A DNA stretch of 64,000 bases from contig CAWELD010000003.1 of the NCBI GenBank assembly GCA_963809895.1, positions 1,568,001 to 1,632,000 on the forward strand. The letters are read 5' to 3'. The stretch comes from an uncultured Gemmatimonadales bacterium (GTDB lineage: Bacteria; Gemmatimonadota; Gemmatimonadetes; Longimicrobiales; Gaopeijiaceae). Numbering within the stretch: the stretch's first letter is position 1; every line of letters starts with the position of its first letter. The position numbers were made by a program, and so were the translations under genes. Below, one piece after another: positions 29,036-36,616 of this stretch. The notes beneath the pieces are model-generated. The model was not told where the DNA came from. It saw only the letters and a list, made by a program, of their open reading frames with translations, and made no database searches.

Positions 29036-29619
29036 CCGTCCGGGCCGACGGGGGGCTCTTCGCCGGAGCCCGGGCCTGGACGCGTAACGCGGCGCAGGGG
29101 CGGGACTGGCGCCCCCGGGCGCTCCTGATGCCCGTCCTGGCGTGGTTCCTGGTCCGACACCTGGCCGATCCGGGCTACGCGGGCATCTACGACGGGCTCA
29201 ACCTGGCGCTCCACGAAGGCGGTCACCTGCTGTTCGGCTGGTCCGGCAGCGAACTGCTCACGGCCGCCGGCGGAACGTTGCTCGAGGTGGCCTGCCCGCT
29301 GCTGGCCGCGGTGGCCTTCGTGCGCCAGCGCGACCCGTTCGCCGTCACCGTCGCGGGCTTCTGGTGGGGGACGACGCTCCTGGACGTGGCGCCCTACATG
29401 GCCGACGCCCGGGCCCGGGCCCTTCCGCTGGTCACGGTGGGCGACGGCCCGGCCACCCACGACTGGGCCTACCTCCTGGGCCGCTTCGGCCTGCTGGAGC
29501 AGGACTGGCTGCTGGCGGGCCTGACCCGGGACCTGGGCCTCCTGGTGTTGATCCTCTCGCTCAGCGCCGGGGCCTGGGTCCTGGTCGTGATGGCCCGAGG
29601 AAGTTCTTCGACACCGTGA
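29032..29619 (+). CDS. Membrane protein with HExxH motif (start is CTG 29032 or ATG 29128)
   Basis: LHEGGHLLF, YMADARA..LP, HDW and several TM segments. Confidence 0.7.
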   Translation: MTVRADGGLFAGARAWTRNAAQGRDWRPRALLMPVLAWFLVRHLADPGYAGIYDGLNLALHEGGHLLFGWSGSELLTAAGGTLLEVACPLLAAVAFVRQRDPFAVTVAGFWWGTTLLDVAPYMADARARALPLVTVGDGPATHDWAYLLGRFGLLEQDWLLAGLTRDLGLLVLILSLSAGAWVLVVMARGSSSTP

Positions 29620-32459
29620 TCTGGACCTGGAAGGGATTGGAGATCGTTCCCAGGTCCTCGTCGTCCTTGGTGAGCCAGAAGAAGTCGTAGGTACCTTCGT
29701 CGAGCGGCGCCATGGAGGGGTCGAAGGTGGCGGTGGCGGTGGCGCGCCGGTATCCCCCCATGTCCTGGATGGAGTAGTTGGCGCGTCCTGTGACGGGCAC
29801 GGCGATCTTCACCGAGTTGTCGAGCTCCACCAGTGCGAACAGCTGTGCCCAGTCGAGGTCGAAGGGATCGCCGCCCGAGCCTCCCGGGATCAGCGCCTCC
29901 AGCGTGTAGTCGGCCGTGGTGGGCACACCGGGGCAGCCGCCTCCCAGGTCGACGCACACCTTCGGGACACCGCTCAGGCCGTGAATCCAGTCCACGGTGG
30001 TGTGCGTGCCCGTGGGCGCGGTGATACCGGTGAGATCGAGGCCCCGCACGGTGAGGTTGTGGCCCACGTCCTTGGCGCCCCAGCGGAGCCCGTTCAGCGG
30101 GTGCCAGGTTCCGGTGGGCGAATAGGGCGGGTCGGCCAGCGTGCCCTGGATCGCCTGCAGGACCGGGTCGAGGGCACCGTTCAACTGGGTCGTGGTGGGG
30201 AAGGTGCCGTCGAAGGCCCGGGACAGGATGGCGAAGTTGCTCAGGTACACCTCGTCACGCCCGTCGTAGGAGTTGCCGAAGGCGCCGTAGGTGAGCTTGA
30301 GGTTGTCGGTGAGGTCCCAGCTCACCTCGAGCCGGGCGCCGATGGAGAGCTGGTCCGGATCCCAGACCAGATCGCCGAGCTCCGGCGGCTCCGGGTCGTA
30401 CACGAAGTGCGTCAGGAGGGTGTTCGAGGGATTCCAGGCCATGTCGAAGCCGCGCAGGCTGGCCGTGTACTCACCCGCTCCTCCGGAGAAGTCGGGCTTG
30501 AACCCCAGGGCCAGCGGCGTATTGAGCCGAATGAACCCGCAACTCCCTCCGAGAAGGTCCCGGTCACGCAGGCCTTCTCGTCGGTGACCCCGTCGTAGTT
30601 CCACTGGAGCTCAGGTCGAACCCGCCCAGGTAGGGGCCCGACGCCCCGCCCACGCCCGGATCGACGGGATCGTCCAGCTCGCCGCCGATGGACCAGGCCG
30701 GATCCGGATTGACGGCGAAGTCCTTGATGTAGGTGGCCCCCACCTTGAGCGAGAGGTCCGGCTTGTCCAGGTCCACGCCAAAGGCCAGGGGCTGCGCCGA
30801 GCCGTCGCGGAGGATCCGGTCACCCCGGAGTCCCGCGCGATCGTAGTAGTCCAGCCGCAGGTAGTTGCTGTAGCCGGCGGTCTGGGCGAGGTCACCGCCG
30901 GTGATCACGGGCGGCAAGGCCTGATCGAAGGGATCGGGGCCCGCGACCCACTGGCTGTAGTCGATGCCCGAGCCCTCATCGCCGAGAAGCGAGGGATCGT
31001 AGCCCGCGTTCGCCTGGGCCCAGGCCGCGAAGTCGGTGTTGGCGCCCACCCAGAAGTTGGCGCCGTAGGTGAGGTCGCCCCCGTAGATGGGAGCGGCCGC
31101 GTCCCAGTTCCACTGGGCCTGGACGTTCAGGCCGCTGCCCAGGTAGTCGGCGTAGGTGTTGCCGATCGTCAGGTCCACGGTGGACGCGTCGGAGAGCGTG
31201 GCGGTGGCACTGGAAAAGGACACGGGACCCGCGTAGCCCTTGATCCCGGCCGGCGACCCGAGGTCGGAGCGAATGATGAAGTCGACCACGCCCCCGATGG
31301 TCGACTGGTTGTAGATGGTGCCCACGGGTTCGGCCACGATCTCCACGGACTCGACCTCGAAGGGGCTCGGGTCGAAGTAGACGAAGCGGCCCGTGAACTG
31401 CCCGTCGCCGACGTTGTAGGTGGTGCCGTTCTGCCCGGTGACGGTGCCGTTCACCGGCACGCCGTCGATGTAGATGAGCGGCGGGTTCCTGAGCGTGAGA
31501 CTCGGGATGCCGCCACCGCCCCGCACGGTGGCTTCGGTGGTATTGCCGTCGACCACCAGACCCGGGGCCAACGTGACGACATCGTTGAGGGTGCGGGCTA
31601 CGGGTGTGTCGTTGATCACTTCCGTGGTGACGGTCGAGACCGGTGTGCCGACCTCTTTCTCCAGCCCACGGAGCGGCCCGGCAGCCGGTGCTCCGCTCGG
31701 TAGCGTGACCTCCTGGCTCGTCACCAGCACGTCGTCGAGGCGCACCTCGATGGTCCCGGTCATCCCCGGAGGGCCCTCCACCGTGAAGTTGGCGATGAAG
31801 ACGCCCGAGACGTCGTCGACGTCCAGGGGATCCCCGTCCAGCGTCTCCAGGCTCTCCAGGTAGAGGGCCGGCGGGGTCTCGGTGACCGTGACGTCGGCCG
31901 AGGCCTCCACGCCGGCCTGACCCGTCACGGCCGCCGTGACCGTAGCCGTCCCCGCGGCCTGCGCCGTGACCAGCCCACCGGCGTCCACCGTGGCCACGCT
32001 CTCGTCCGACGAGCTCCAGGTGACGCTCAGGCCCACGCCGCCGGTGATGGTGGCCGTGAGCTGGCCGGTCTGTCCCACCTCCAGATCGAGGCTCCCTGGC
32101 GTCACCGAGATCGAGGAGGCCTTCACCGTCACCGATGCGGTGGCGCTGGCCCCCGAGGCGGACGCGGTGATCGTGGCTGAGCCGACGCCCACGGCCGTGA
32201 CCGTCCCCGACTGCGACACCATGGCCACCTGGTTGTCCGACGAGGTGAAGGAGACCGAGCCGCCCGACCCGCCCGAAACCGACGCCGACAGGCTGGCGGT
32301 CTCGCCCACGAACAGCGACACCGAGGTCGGCGACAGGGTCACGGTCACGTCGGGCTCGTTGCCGCCTCCGTCGCCGCCACAGCCGGCGACCAGCACGAGG
32401 AGCGTGAGGGCGGCGAGTCCAGGGTCGCGGAGCGAGCCGGAGCGGGATGGAGTGCGCAT
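29561..32459 (-). CDS. Large surface lipoprotein with two Big_2 Ig-like domains (frameshifted near 30546-30612)
   Basis: LVAGC lipobox; two SSD..VA.V...G.VTA...G.ATITA repeats; reading frame continues in ORF 29561..30604. Confidence 0.75.
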
Positions 32460-32612
32460 GGCCGGGAGGGTTGGGCTGCGGATCGACTGTCACGTCCGCC
32501 CACAGTACGCCCGGCAGGGGTCTGGCGCCAAGGAAAACGATGGCCGTGGACCACCACACCGGGGCGCCCGACCACTCTCGAGCTCCGCTGATCAAGGAGG
32601 GCCGTCCACCCG

Positions 32613-32647
32613 TGAGGCCCGGCCTCCACGCTGAAGACCGGGCCTCA
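32613..32647 (-). terminator. Hairpin downstream of the LamG gene
   Basis: Minus strand TGAGGCCCGGTCTTCA-GCG-TGGAGGCCGGGCCTCA, a 16-bp stem with two G-U pairs. Confidence 0.6.
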
Positions 32648-32679
32648 ATGGCGGGCCTAAGACCGGGCGGACCAGCCCA

Positions 32680-33882
32680 TTAATTGCACACGGCCGGAAC
32701 ATCACACAATGACGCCACCTCGGCGGCGCTCAGTGCCCGGCCGTAGACCCGAAATTCGTCCAAGATGCCGTCCATCGGGTGATTGCCGCTCGAATTGTCT
32801 CCAATTGTGACCGGCGTGGAGTTGTTGTTCATCACCCCGACCAGCGTGACCTCGTCAACGAGAGTCCCATTGAGGTACATCCGGGCCGTGGACACACCGT
32901 ACACCACTGCGAAATGCGTCCAGGTACCGCCCTCCACCGCGAAGTGCTCCAAGTCACCCCCCACTCCAGTTCCACTGTAGAGGCGCGAGAAGATGAGATT
33001 CTCCGTGTAGCCCAGCGTGGCCTTATCGATTGAGAAGCTTTTCAACACGTTCTGGGATCCGAACGTATCCACGTGCTTCTCAATCAACCCACAAAACCGG
33101 GTAACGTCCAGGCATGCTGATCGAAGGTAGAACCACCCCGTGAACGTCTTCGGACCTCCATCGTCAAACGCATCCCCAACGACGATATGTCCGCCATCGA
33201 AAGACAAACCGCGACCCATTACACCAAACCGGTCAACTGCTGCAGAGACGGCGCCTGAAATCGTCCCATCATATCCGTTGCCGGACGCATCGTCGGCAAC
33301 GCCGTCCAGCGGCCAGTAAGCCAGAAGGCCATCATCTACCGCCGCACCCACCTCAACCCTGAAACGAATCTCGAGGAAAGGCTTTCCGCTGTCGTCTCCG
33401 ATGAGCAGATATTCGCCACGGGTCTCATTTCTGAGCTTCCCAGTGGCTTTGTCGACAACCAGGATGTCCGCGTACCCCAGCATCGTGCCCTCCACGGAGG
33501 CCGTCATCCGCAGCATGTCGCCATCGTTCATGTCATCGAATGGGATATACCACCGAGCGCGATACGACTCCGATGTGGACTCGTAGGAGAGTCCAGAAGC
33601 GAGATCAAAGGCCGTGAGCGACCCGACGCAGTGGCCGCCTGAGTAGAAGCAGATCTCGATGTCTGGGTCTGCGGCCGGATCAGTGATTCCCGAGTAGCTT
33701 GGCGATCCTTGGATAGTGGGAGGGAGCCAGAAGAAATGCTGGTTCCCTCCGTTGTTGGCTCCGTCCACGATCGCCCGAGCGGTGATCGGGATTCGGTACA
33801 AGTTCGGGCCCGTGGGAGCCGAGGAGTCCGTGCAAGATCCGACAATCAGGACTGCCGCCAACCCCATCGTGGTCCGCTTCAA
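32680..33882 (-). CDS. Lipoprotein with C-terminal LamG/concanavalin A-like domain
   Basis: TTG start after GAGGAGG, IVGSC lipobox, LLAYWPLDG..DASGNG, WTHFAVVY, GILDEFRVYGRALS; lower GC than flanks. Confidence 0.85.
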   Translation of the reverse strand: MKRTTMGLAAVLIVGSCTDSSAPTGPNLYRIPITARAIVDGANNGGNQHFFWLPPTIQGSPSYSGITDPAADPDIEICFYSGGHCVGSLTAFDLASGLSYESTSESYRARWYIPFDDMNDGDMLRMTASVEGTMLGYADILVVDKATGKLRNETRGEYLLIGDDSGKPFLEIRFRVEVGAAVDDGLLAYWPLDGVADDASGNGYDGTISGAVSAAVDRFGVMGRGLSFDGGHIVVGDAFDDGGPKTFTGWFYLRSACLDVTRFCGLIEKHVDTFGSQNVLKSFSIDKATLGYTENLIFSRLYSGTGVGGDLEHFAVEGGTWTHFAVVYGVSTARMYLNGTLVDEVTLVGVMNNNSTPVTIGDNSSGNHPMDGILDEFRVYGRALSAAEVASLCDVPAVCN

Positions 33883-34114
33883 TGGTGTGTCCTCCTCGGA
33901 AGGGAGCGGGAACAGACGAGTGATGCCGGACATCCTTGATTCGGACCGTCAATCTCGCGTCAAGCGAGGCTTGGCCACGATGCTCCACGAGGTCCACCGC
34001 CGCATTCAATCCGTCAGATCGCGGGCGTAAACGCCCAGCAGGCGCGGCCCTCCGCGGTCAGGATCCAGGGACGCCGAGTCTTCCGAAACTCGGGCTACCA
34101 GGGAGTGCATGAGC

Positions 34115-34236
34115 CCCTGGAACTCAGGAGGTGGAGGGCCATGTGAGGCACCGGATCAGAACGCAGCCCGGGTTACCAGTTCGGAGGCAGGCTAAAACGC
34201 CGGTGTTGCGGTGTCCACGGAAGCGAGGGAACTCCA
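34115..34236 (-). mobile_element. IS3-family-like left-end remnant
   Basis: TGGAGTTCCCTCGCTTCCGTGGACAC (34236-34211) resembles IS3-family terminal IRs; followed by a decayed PPPPEF stretch like OrfA starts; no transposase present. Confidence 0.5.
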
Positions 34237-34254
34237 GCAAAGGCCGAGAAGACT

Positions 34255-35764
34255 CTACAAGAACAACCCCATCCGCTGCTCCAGTACCTGCCGGGTAAGC
34301 ACCCCCGTGAGGTTGAACACCTCGGGGTCGAAGCCGTCCCGCTTTGCACGCGTCCGCCAACTCTCCGCCACCCACGCGAGGTTCTCAGCCGTAATCAGCG
34401 CCACGTCCGTGTCGGTGCCCGGATTCCACCTTCAACCGGGCCGCGATAGCGGCGGCACCCTCGCCGATCTCAGGGACGATCACCAGGAAGCAAGAGACCC
34501 GCGTAGCTGAATCTCGGATGTACCGCTTGAACTGCTTCAGGTGGCTCTCGGGGAAGGAGTAGACCGTCTCCTTGGACTTGTTGTCCCAGAAGAGCAGGTC
34601 CCCACTCCGCTTGAATTGCACGCATCCGTCCGGATGCTCTGAGCCGGGCAGGTCGACGAGATCAAGACCGAGCTTCTGGCGGAACAGGTAGCGCGTGGCC
34701 TCTTCAAACCCCCGCTCCATCTCGATGTCCTTCTTGACCACCTTGTTCGCGAGCAGCGTCTCTCGGTCCCGGCGAGCGAGTTCCTTGAAGAACTGATAGT
34801 AGCGTTCCCCAGGAGAGGCTTCCTCAGGCACCTCGCGGACCACGAGATTGGCGAAGTAGTCGATGAGGCGCTGGACTCGCTCACCCTTGGTGCCGCTGAC
34901 CTTGGCACCAGGCAGTGCATCGCAGAGGTCGTAGAGCTCAGAATTCGAGAGGGAATCCAGCGCCCGACTCGGGCGGAGGCCAGTAGACAGGATCCGTTCC
35001 TTCAACTCGTCCTTCGAGCCCGACTTGGGGACCCCTGCGGCTTCGAGGATCGTCGCCATCTGATCCTTCGTCATCTGAGCGACCAACTGGGTCCATGCAG
35101 CCTCGCTGAGCTCGATGCCCAACGCATCCCTGATGGCTGGAACGATTTCCTCGGGCACCACGAAGCGGCCACCGTCCAACTTGTTGCAGTAGAAGACGAC
35201 TCCGCGACGCTGGAGGTCGAGCAGCGCTTCCTTGAATTCCGATGGCGTGTGGAGTCGGTTCCCTGCCCGAGGGAAATGACCGAGTTGGGCGAGGATGGTC
35301 TGCTTCGCCCGCTCGGAGAGGCCCAGCTTCTCCCTCAGGCGCCGCAGAAGGCCCAACTCCTCTTCGGTCAGGCGTTCGTCCTCAAGAGCCACTTCAAGGA
35401 CGGCACGGAAGATCTCGACGGCCTTCGCATCTTCGTATCGGAGGGCGTCGGGGTCTGAAGCCCGCTCGATCACCTCAAGTTCGTTCGCGGTCACGGCCTC
35501 GACGACGTCCTGCTCTGCTGCAGCCGTGCCCGGACAGTTCACCAAGGTCTCCAGTATCGAAGCCAGCAACACCTGGTGAGAATAGAGCCCATCGAGTTGC
35601 AGGACCGTCGCCACGCGCTTCGGATCGGTGAGCTCTTCGGCATTCCGGAGGATGATCTCGCGAGACTTGTCCTCATCCCCCTTCTGGAAGTCCCGCGTGA
35701 AGCTGTCGATGATGCGGTGGAGATACGCCTTGGTCATGTGCTGCACAGCTTCTTCGACCCGCAT
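34255..35764 (-). CDS. TerB-like/wHTH/2xSAP/FokI-like PD-(D/E)xK nuclease (+1 frameshift at ~34419)
   Basis: GGAGG RBS; ALEDERLTEEELGLLRRLREKLGLS; two SAP-like motifs; FEEAT..HPDG..WDNKS..Y.FP..QFKRYI; shifted frame continues GTDTDVALITAENL..GLFL*. Confidence 0.75.
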
Positions 35765-35949
35765 GGGACCTCCTGGCTGCCACAGGTGGCGCGTAGGTTC
35801 TAGGGAGGACGCGGGTAGCCTACGTGTCTTCACCACACCATCGCAAGGTGGAAGGGGGCGGCCTCCTTGTCCCGAGGGGCCACCGGCCCTAGGGTATTCT
35901 CGCCCCCCTACACACAGCTTGGGCGCCACATGGTGCCAAGGAGGGTTGG

Positions 35950-36210
35950 ATGGCTGAGCTGGACCTGGAACTCGTCAGGAGCAGGCTCGCTGAGCGTCTG
36001 GCCGGATTTGATCGCTGGGATGTTCATCTCGCCGATGATCAAGTCTCCCTCGAAGGGCCCGGCCCCTGGTCACCGCATCCATGGAAGCCAGAGGCGATGG
36101 TGGATCTCATCGTCGAAGGCATTCTCTCGGCAGCCTGGTCCAGTCACTGCCAGTACTTGGCAATGCTCTTCGGGGAGGAACGAACCGGTTGCGTACCTGC
36201 TGACGAATGA
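35950..36210 (+). CDS. Hypothetical protein or gene fragment
   Basis: RBS-like GAGGG before ATG; no recognisable domain; may be a decayed longer gene. Confidence 0.3.
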   Translation: MAELDLELVRSRLAERLAGFDRWDVHLADDQVSLEGPGPWSPHPWKPEAMVDLIVEGILSAAWSSHCQYLAMLFGEERTGCVPADE

Positions 36211-36492
36211 GACTACTGCCCCCGGCCTCCTTCGGTGGTGCGGGGGCAGCCGTCCCCGAACGGCGCCCATCTTGGGCCCATCGCCGTACAGCGCGACACG
36301 ACCTATCGTATTGGACCTCGCGAGCGGGTACCGCCGCGCGCCGTACTGTCGCGGTGGGCCGGGCGTCCGGCAGGTGGGGAAATCCACGACCCGCACCGAG
36401 CTTCGAGCCGATCCACCGACACGCACCGCCACGACACTGGTGGAGTCTGGACCGGAAGCCAACTGGGCAAGCTGAGGTGTGGCGGAGGGCAC

Positions 36493-36529
36493 AAGAAAAG
36501 CGGCCCAGGCGTAAGTACCTGGACCGCTT
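36493..36529 (-). terminator. Intrinsic terminator after tRNA-Met
   Basis: Minus strand AAGCGGTCCAGG-loop-CCTGGGCCGCTT followed by TTCTT. Confidence 0.8.
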
Positions 36530-36542
36530 CACCTTCCCTGAG

Positions 36543-36616
36543 TGCCGGAGGAGGGACTCGAACCCCCGACACGCGGATTATGATTCCGCTGCTCTAACCG
36601 ACTGAGCTACTCCGGC
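36543..36616 (-). tRNA. tRNA-Met(CAT), elongator type, CCA not encoded
   Basis: GCCGGAGTAGCTCAGTCGGTTAGAGCAGCGGAATCATAATCCGCGTGTCGGGGGTTCGAGTCCCTCCTCCGGCA folds into a full cloverleaf. Confidence 0.95.

Follow-up and report, generated by a model that had tools for sequence, protein, structure and literature searches.

A stand-alone protein with winged-helix, half-TerB, SAP and FokI-type nuclease parts: a candidate anti-phage gene family and its shared N-terminal module

FokI and N.BspD6I/R.BspD6I2 are type IIS enzymes (PDB 1FOK, 2FOK, 2EWF, 2P14; PF09254) in which a cleavage domain lies behind a winged-helix-containing DNA-binding part. Type IIS restriction–modification is defined by a linked cognate methyltransferase and by recognition of a specific sequence with cleavage a fixed distance away, and type IV enzymes by having no cognate methyltransferase, by a reader of modified bases (DpnI-type winged helix, SRA, EVE or YTH) and by cutting modified DNA alone. 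END nucleases and winged-helix fusion type IV enzymes are single genes that join a sensor to a nuclease, dispense with a methyltransferase and reside in variable islands; END proteins are described as pairing a PLD nuclease with an inactive EndoIII sensor (PMC12191111), and the accessible text on the winged-helix fusions describes no SAP or TerB part (PMC11037411). FAN1, which combines SAP with a VRR-Nuc domain and forms dimers in some species, offers a precedent for SAP joined to a structure-selective nuclease, in a repair role (10.1101/236208). Among multi-gene systems, Shango is composed of a TerB protein (SngA), an ATPase (SngB) and a helicase (SngC) and has modest anti-phage activity, the role of TerB domains in phage defence being described as unclear (10.1101/2022.11.11.516204, 10.1101/2022.05.11.491447). 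In type 2 BREX, BrxD and BrxHI form a linked dyad in which BrxD perhaps loads the helicase; the main text of this 2026 BREX survey makes no mention of SAP or TerB (PMC12839542).

In this study we analyse a gene from an uncultured Gemmatimonadales bacterium that encodes a winged helix with a TerB-like insert, two SAP motifs and a FokI-type nuclease domain, together with its relatives. The family shares with FokI and BspD6I the cleavage fold, the C-terminal PD-x14-DxK site and the placing of the cleavage domain behind a winged-helix-containing DNA-binding part. Unlike FokI, it has no cognate methyltransferase; where FokI carries its recognition domain it has a single winged helix, bearing a TerB-like insert, and two SAP motifs; and its predicted dimer interface lies in an N-terminal hairpin and not in the nuclease. 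The lack of a linked methyltransferase separates the family from type IIS restriction–modification and is shared with type IV enzymes, and we propose, by analogy, that it works like the stand-alone sensor-nucleases of the END and winged-helix type IV kind. A TerB-like element is common to Shango and to the N-terminal module described here, and a sister family that uses this module shares its ATPase and helicase with Shango and with BrxD–BrxHI; unlike Shango, the gene analysed here is accompanied by neither ATPase nor helicase, and the module has no TerB_N plus TerB_C and does not align to SngA. The likeness to FAN1, SAP plus a nuclease of the PD-(D/E)xK class, is one of analogy and not of homology, as FAN1 belongs to another nuclease subfamily, and no FAN1 structure was found among the Foldseek matches or the 50 VIA matches listed.

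The nuclease family is thus outside type IIS restriction–modification, Shango and the PADLOC models, and the gene is, judged from its sequence, a plausible new immune gene. In the main texts of freely accessible literature we found no TerB–SAP–FokI architecture, no link between FokI or PF09254 and defence, and no paper joining SAP domains to phage defence; a search of the BrxD/BrxHI literature found no mention of "SAP domain". Throughout the text, "the window" is the whole stretch of DNA that was analysed (64,000 nucleotides; contig CAWELD010000003.1, positions 1,568,001 to 1,632,000), and coordinates are those of the window unless another contig is named.

The nuclease gene and its domains

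The gene and its parts are as follows.
34255–35764, minus strand: nuclease gene, 502 codons plus stop and one extra base; winged helix with TerB-like insert, two SAP motifs, FokI-type nuclease
34418–34420, minus strand: GGG run with the extra base (CCC on the plus strand)
35117–35638, minus strand: winged-helix domain, residues about 43–216, with a helical insert (pLDDT 94.7, structural matches)
35324–35428, minus strand: half-TerB helical hairpin, residues 113–147, with D129 and E136 conserved; predicted homodimer interface (Pfam, conservation, dimer model)
34988–35074, minus strand: SAP motif 1, residues 231–259 (Pfam SAP, PIAS1 structure)
34862–34951, minus strand: SAP motif 2, residues about 272–301 (conserved pattern L..L..LC..LPG.KVSG.K..RI)
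34258–34822, minus strand: FokI-type PD-(D/E)xK nuclease domain, residues about 315–502, catalytic E354, D379, D394 and K396; last 53 residues past the break

The called open reading frame runs on the minus strand from an ATG at 35764 to a stop at 34385 (459 aa), and after LKVESG it passes into unrelated residues, while the other frame goes on as TDTDVALITAENL...RMGLFL up to a TAG at 34255–34257. The first-pass annotation had proposed that one extra G at 34418–34420 breaks the frame and that its removal gives a protein of about 500 residues. This is borne out by the length of the gene (35764 to 34255 is 1510 nt, or 503 codons plus one) and by tblastn with two homologs, which align over residues 1–449 in one frame (66% and 67% identity) and over 445–498 in the next (62% and 67%). 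The homologs, of 501–507 aa, are uninterrupted across the position of the break. Scans for promoters and terminators found none.

No assembled contig from four runs spans 34418–34420; the exactly matching pieces cover 34454–34713 and 35807–36026 (RNA library X1) and 35209–35448 (X2), and a contig in an RNA library is not proof of transcription. Of 39 genes of this genome that could be compared with related proteins, four have frame changes: the nuclease gene, an IS110 transposase and two non-mobile genes. The latter are a purL-like gene (G000:C3:1483445-1485326), which we take to be purL, and a membrane-protein gene (C10:745642-746548), and their frameshifts suggest residual indel errors in this assembly. 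The tail of the nuclease gene past the break is free of decay, which likewise favours an error. The family is broken in 4 of the 16 other carrier genomes of the phylum, so that a true pseudogene is plausible; an unbroken reading frame of at least 495 aa is found at 39 of 59 loci, while at the remaining 20 it is broken, runs off a contig or was not called. On balance we lean slightly towards an intact gene that was mis-assembled, and give a little under an even chance to a very recent pseudogene whose nuclease fold now lacks its last 53 residues. If the break is real, the loss of these residues has probably left the copy dead. A further apparent frame problem, which also speaks for an error, lies elsewhere in the same islet: an Ig-like (Big_2) open reading frame and the next one (29564–32459, minus strand) have a 38-nt overlap and seem to be a single gene whose frame shifts twice near 30560–30620.

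The C-terminal domain is the most firmly placed part of the protein. Pfam FokI_cleav_dom (PF09254) matches residues 351–422 (E 2.8e-6; 27.4 bits vs a gathering cut-off of 25), and each of the residues E354, D379, D394 and K396 is present in 76 of 77 sequences. We modelled the homolog P0002 with AlphaFold2 and 78 sequences (pLDDT 92.4); the top Foldseek match of this model is FokI (E 4.5e-7), with a whole-chain TM-score of only 0.27. VIA comparison of the C-terminal domain gives FokI at Z 15.6 (rmsd 11.9, 236 aligned), N.BspD6I at Z 12.6 (rmsd 3.9, 181 aligned) and R.BspD6I2 at Z 12.0 (rmsd 3.2, 155 aligned). The FokI range aligned is chain 287–579, which takes in the region before its cleavage domain. 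The FokI-like PD-(D/E)xK fold that had been read from the sequence is thus supported by structure searches and by a Pfam score above the cut-off. By sequence, nothing in the PDB matched under E 0.1; BFVD gave nothing at E≤0.001, NCBIfam had no match for the nuclease protein, and the P0002 model contains no transmembrane segment. Pfam detected no known modified-base reader family (SRA, EVE, YTH) in the protein or in the homologs scanned.

Two SAP-like motifs had also been noted, and both stand where they had been placed. For the first, Pfam SAP (PF02037) falls just below its cut-off in the window copy (E 1.3e-4; 21.9 bits vs 23.9) and rises above it in the homologs P0002 (28.4 bits, E 1.2e-6) and P0004 (25.0 bits), and the SAP structure of PIAS1 matches residues 217–281 of the P0002 model (Z 6.6, rmsd 2.9, 62 aligned). 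The second is marked by its conserved pattern and by helices at 274–283 and 293–305 in the model.

The N-terminal part was read less exactly at first: the winged helix is present, but instead of occupying residues 174–206 alone it spans about 43–216, with the TerB-like hairpin inserted in it. The first 216 residues of the window protein were modelled at pLDDT 94.7, and the VIA matches of this model are full of Orc1/Cdc6-type and MarR/PadR-type winged helices, the best at Z 7.9 (rmsd 2.6, 94 aligned over 43–216); a Z under 8 here means a common fold only. Winged helices likewise align to residues 42–217 of the P0002 model, and alignment ranges and secondary structure suggest that the unaligned middle is the TerB-like insert. 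Foldseek returned nothing at E≤0.001 for the N-terminal model, and neither the solved TerB (2JXU) nor a DpnI-type winged helix was among the 50 VIA matches listed, in which a two-helix half would score low. The TerB-like hairpin lies where it had been placed, but it amounts to half a TerB domain and its Pfam score is below the cut-off. TerB (PF05099) matches residues 89–154 (E 0.004; 17.8 bits vs 24.4) over profile positions 46–113 of 118, that is, the second half only, as it does in three homologs. The solved TerB has two such hairpins and the nuclease protein has one, in which D129 is kept in 66 of 77 sequences and E136 in 76 of 77.

The islet and the distribution of the family

The surroundings of the gene contain the following features.
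36542–36616, minus strand: tRNA-Met(CAT), 3' end facing the islet
29620–36541, no strand: islet of about 7 kb with Ig-like genes, a LamG gene and the nuclease gene; edges approximate
34207–34237, no strand: 31-bp motif similar to the end of an insertion sequence; occurs once in this genome

The segment at 29.1–29.5 kb of the window has its match only 164–489 bp from the tRNA in 9 of 17 other genomes of the genus, whereas about 7 kb separate the two here, which identifies the islet as an insertion. One of these 17 genomes has the nuclease gene, at another site and unbroken. No integrase was found in the islet, and 29500–29800 holds no repeat of the tRNA end of at least 8 bases. The first-pass annotation had described a low-GC setting beside a tRNA-Met gene with no methyltransferase nearby, and each element held: the gene lies in the islet next to the tRNA, GC is 0.57–0.65 over 32.5–36.5 kb vs 0.695 for the contig, and no methyltransferase occurs among the open reading frames scanned in 24.8–37.9 and 42.1–44.5 kb, the scan having passed over the one at 37.9–42.1 kb. 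The insertion-sequence remnant that it had placed downstream fared less well. The 31-bp end-like motif speaks for it; against it, the six short translations of 33680–34232 match no Pfam family, and neither a plasmid match of weight nor a second copy in the genome was found. Two other genomes contain motifs at 90% identity to this one, and one of these motifs is followed, at a contig end, by a ribosome site and the start of an open reading frame that is presumably IS3-like.

Other genes of the region were noted in passing. Within the islet, 32680–33933 (minus strand) encodes a 417-aa lipoprotein-like protein with a C-terminal LamG domain, at a GC of about 0.57. Divergent from the nuclease gene, an 86-aa open reading frame (35950–36210, plus strand) has no Pfam, PADLOC or NCBIfam match, and its region is overlapped by the RNA-library contig that exactly matches 35807–36026. 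In another same-genus genome, a different insert of about 2.7 kb sits on the other side of the same tRNA-Met (G303:C5:101540-104300).

The family itself is sizeable. Among 8000 candidates scored, 203 proteins matched at E≤0.001, the best 120 being 52–67% identical and mostly 501–507 aa long, and a profile search, clustered at 50%, returned 502 representatives, of which 127 reach E≤1e-30. FokI_cleav_dom plus SAP is also present in three Atlas clusters (235, 1077 and 50 members), which go under no other names than "hypothetical" or "SAP domain-containing", with Bacillota the commonest members. The family is rare within each phylum sampled: 17 of 301 genomes of the present phylum and 4/401, 12/401 and 4/401 genomes of three other sets are carriers, counts that include each centre genome and, for some carriers, distant forms. 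Five Acidimicrobiia copies nest among the Gemmatimonadota copies, four of them at 78–85% identity to these, in a quick tree from which we claim no donor. Homologs of 546 aa are encoded by the Halorubrum virus Humcor1 (HrrHm1_140, L111:5458-7098) and by a Natrinema plasmid, near an integrase (L110:7458-9098). On sequence evidence the family is horizontally spread in bacteria, with haloarchaeal plasmid and virus homologs, and its patchy, islet-type distribution, as first supposed, is seen in the absence from the site in 9 of 17 same-genus genomes, the 17 carriers among 301 genomes and the near-identity across phyla. Viral contigs yielded no relative of P0001 and none of the sister alignment, and the 514-aa SAP protein P0263 had no plasmid match. 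Three incomplete copies of the gene lie close together, over about 42 kb, in one genome (G229:C4:191454-233139).

To assess the defence context we gathered 59 loci plus the window, with 199 dereplicated neighbours within 5 kb, using simple gene calls of our own that miss short genes. The nuclease gene has no recurring partner, the most frequent neighbour family being found in 7 of 60 loci. At E≤1e-15, PADLOC models match 32 of the 199 neighbours vs 2 of 94 control open reading frames from this genome, and 21 of 199 after removal of 11 generic or partial matches; the p-values (2.9e-4 and 0.010) overstate the difference, as many of the genomes in this set are related to each other and the control was drawn from a single genome. 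At least one PADLOC-matching neighbour occurs at 20 of 52 loci, and Pfam, run on 112 of the 199, adds transposases, PemK, AbiU2, GmrSD, McrBC, SIR2 and HNH proteins; many neighbours are housekeeping genes. In a second set of eight full-length copies from Bacteroidota and Myxococcota (one of which repeats an earlier locus), PADLOC matches 3 of 41 neighbours, two of them generic in appearance (ankyrin, kinase), and around six distant forms it matches 6 of 28. The predicted enrichment in defence genes is therefore clear in the first set but weak in the set from other phyla.

The expectation that homologs would not be paired with a methyltransferase was confirmed, since only 1 of 268 neighbours (199 + 69) is a DNA methyltransferase, and this one adjoins its own EcoRII-type nuclease. 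The best match of the window protein in PADLOC 2.0 (2023 copy) has E 0.004 over 46–82 residues, and neither intact P0002 nor the nuclease-type relatives match a PADLOC system at E≤1e-15, in keeping with the first impression of an architecture outside the named systems. As a separate observation, an ion-channel (Ion_trans) gene family lies near the nuclease gene in six loci (L002, L011, L023, L027, L042, L059), four of them close kin, and in Humcor1 a putative ion transport gene (L111:7605-8435) lies two genes from the nuclease; the association may be due to chance.

The N-terminal module and a candidate sister cassette

The profile search also returned proteins that match only positions about 68–305. 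In these module-only relatives four SAP motifs are followed by a second helical domain, a BrxC/BrxD ATPase, a PD-(D/E)xK nuclease or unknown domains. Aligned with hhalign, the nuclease family and the sister module give a probability of 99.9 (E 1.8e-32, 236 columns), and E136 is invariant across both groups. A metagenome scan found 51 loci of the ATPase fusion (L112–L162), a protein of about 960 aa laid out as winged helix, half-TerB, four SAP motifs and helical domain plus a BrxD/SngB ATPase. The fused ATPase matches BrxD/SngB at E 1e-49 to 1e-87. Wherever at least 300 nt follow the fusion gene, the same gene family is directly next to it (32 of 32), and in all six cases tested this gene is a BrxHI/SngC helicase (E 1e-119 to 1e-164). 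No further partner recurs at these loci, and this two-gene cassette is, on its gene content, a candidate Shango-like system in its own right.

We considered whether the module is SngA itself and rejected this, hhalign giving probabilities of 0.9 and 0.1 against two Shango SngA proteins. TerB_N and TerB_C, both present in two Shango-type SngA proteins, have no Pfam match in the nuclease module, and no PADLOC SngA model matches the nuclease protein, its homologs or the sister loci. The islet and the 199 neighbours of the nuclease family contain no SngB ATPase plus SngC helicase. A stand-alone 406-aa form of the module, with four SAP motifs and no effector, was found among AriA-like, helicase and type IV-like genes (L183:6284-7501).

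Predicted dimer and candidate modes of action

Two copies of P0002 (residues 1–499) gave a dimer score of 0.47, vs 0.00 for the best of three controls; of proteins whose solved structure is a pair of one chain 20 of 30 attain the mark applied, and of those solved as single chains 1 of 23, counts that carry over only roughly because our own alignment was used here. The runs agree in at least 96% of contacts at a pLDDT of at least 83. All contacts listed fall within residues 114–147, in the half-TerB hairpin, and none of them joins the nuclease domains, so the score does not simply reproduce a dimer of nuclease domains. Conservation is 0.59 in the interface columns, 0.44 in the rest of the hairpin and 0.50 over the protein, and is not independent of the dimer prediction. 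The model thus supports homodimerization through the half-TerB hairpin, an arrangement that may echo the packing of the two halves of TerB, and it likely shifts the role of the TerB-like part from "sensor" to "dimeriser, possibly gated".

That the family serves defence of some kind, all such readings taken together, we regard as probable. Our leading and still tentative proposal, in which we place rather less than even confidence, is that the intact family is a stand-alone dimeric anti-phage (anti-mobile-DNA) DNase triggered by DNA structure. Two chains would pair through their half-TerB hairpins, and the pair, clamping DNA with two winged helices and four SAP motifs, would bind it with little sequence preference and bring two cleavage domains to one duplex. 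FokI-type domains need two cleavage domains on one duplex for a double-strand cut. Self-DNA would be spared by something other than methylation, cutting requiring an infection-type state of the DNA such as free ends or branched replication intermediates; this is the least certain step. In the sister family, the same module would recognize the same DNA state and load an Lhr-type helicase through the fused ATPase. We place the trigger in the DNA state because the same module must also serve a helicase loader without a nuclease. Speaking for the proposal are the FokI-type fold with its intact active site, the lack of a recurring partner and of a linked methyltransferase, the mobility of the gene, the PADLOC matches around the first set of loci, the predicted dimer, the module shared with the sister cassette and the precedent of FAN1. 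Speaking against it are the few PADLOC matches in the second set, the many housekeeping neighbours in the first, the lack of listed contacts between the nuclease domains of the predicted dimer, the absence of FAN1 structures from the 50 VIA matches listed and the argument that stand-alone winged-helix nucleases read modified DNA (PMC11037411).

The foremost alternative, possible but on the unlikely side, is a modification-dependent (type IV-like) enzyme in which the winged helix or its insert reads a modified phage base and the FokI-type dimer cuts nearby. No methyltransferase is linked to the nuclease family, type IV enzymes are among the neighbours at L022, L044 and L051, and there are precedents: winged-helix fusion nucleases read 6mA, stand-alone winged-helix nucleases are argued to read modified DNA (PMC11037411), and END nucleases are methylase-free single genes against hypermodified phage DNA (PMC12191111). 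This reading is weakened by the use of the same module in a nuclease-free ATPase–helicase cassette and in that SAP motifs are not known as base readers. DpnI-type winged helices do not appear among the 50 VIA matches listed for the N-terminal model, an absence that decides little.

We think it improbable that the protein lies outside defence, as an accessory DNA-repair or recombination nuclease used in the manner of FAN1 or as a selfish nuclease hitchhiking in variable regions. The weak defence context of the second set (3 of 41) and the several loci between housekeeping genes would suit such a role, as would the use of SAP plus PD-(D/E)xK in repair (FAN1, 10.1101/236208). However, patchy spread, near-identity across phyla and frequent breakage are more in keeping with a defence gene than with a repair gene, and the sister cassette is built from BREX/Shango components.

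Slightly harder still to credit is abortive infection, in which a phage protein, metal or membrane signal acting on the TerB-like hairpin would switch on the dimer, leading to degradation of host and phage DNA. TerB domains are found in Shango, Bunzi and Dionysus, where a role in surveillance has been proposed for them, DinB is a predicted homodimer, and the conserved acidic pair D129/E136 lies at the predicted interface, E136 being kept in the sister family too. Against this, the protein has only half a TerB domain, its model lacks a transmembrane segment and its similarity to the two SngA proteins is negligible. Very unlikely, finally, is a type IIS-like orphan that recognizes a specific sequence while a methyltransferase encoded elsewhere protects the host. 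In its favour, the fold is closest to those of FokI and BspD6I, and the FokI alignment reaches in front of the cleavage domain, but a lone gene crossing phyla would be lethal without a linked methyltransferase, of which the neighbours hold one in 268, and the whole-length TM-score to FokI is so low that the recognition half is not FokI-like.

Returning to the preferred reading of a DNase triggered by DNA structure, a broader and more speculative extension, which we hold as doubtful, is that the portable winged helix, half-TerB and SAP module is a hitherto undescribed sensor by which prokaryotic immunity reads the state of DNA, and in which two half-TerB hairpins gate the dimer. Across the two chains, these hairpins would restore a bundle of TerB type, perhaps with D129/E136 holding a metal within it. 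At least two kinds of effector would make use of the module, namely a FokI-type nuclease as a one-gene form and, as a Shango-like two-gene form, an ORC/Cdc6-type ATPase loading an Lhr helicase, with a reach over bacteria, haloarchaea and a haloarchaeal virus. If this is true, the one-gene form would be a minimal model for the TerB domains of Shango, Bunzi and Dionysus and a natural self-dimerizing relative of FokI. The question of the TerB role would become testable with a one-gene system that has a simple nuclease read-out and shares its module with a Shango-like cassette, in that its activator and the gating of the dimer by the hairpin could be asked for directly. Tool builders may also take an interest in a FokI-type nuclease that brings its own dimer interface. 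It is the family that is of value and not the window copy, which is broken or mis-assembled.

A distant clade of 612–618 aa (L184–L187 and the Pseudoalteromonas replicons H29–H31) carries the same N-terminal module with a PD-(D/E)xK end; it has no PADLOC match, is annotated as hypothetical and occurs in culturable hosts.
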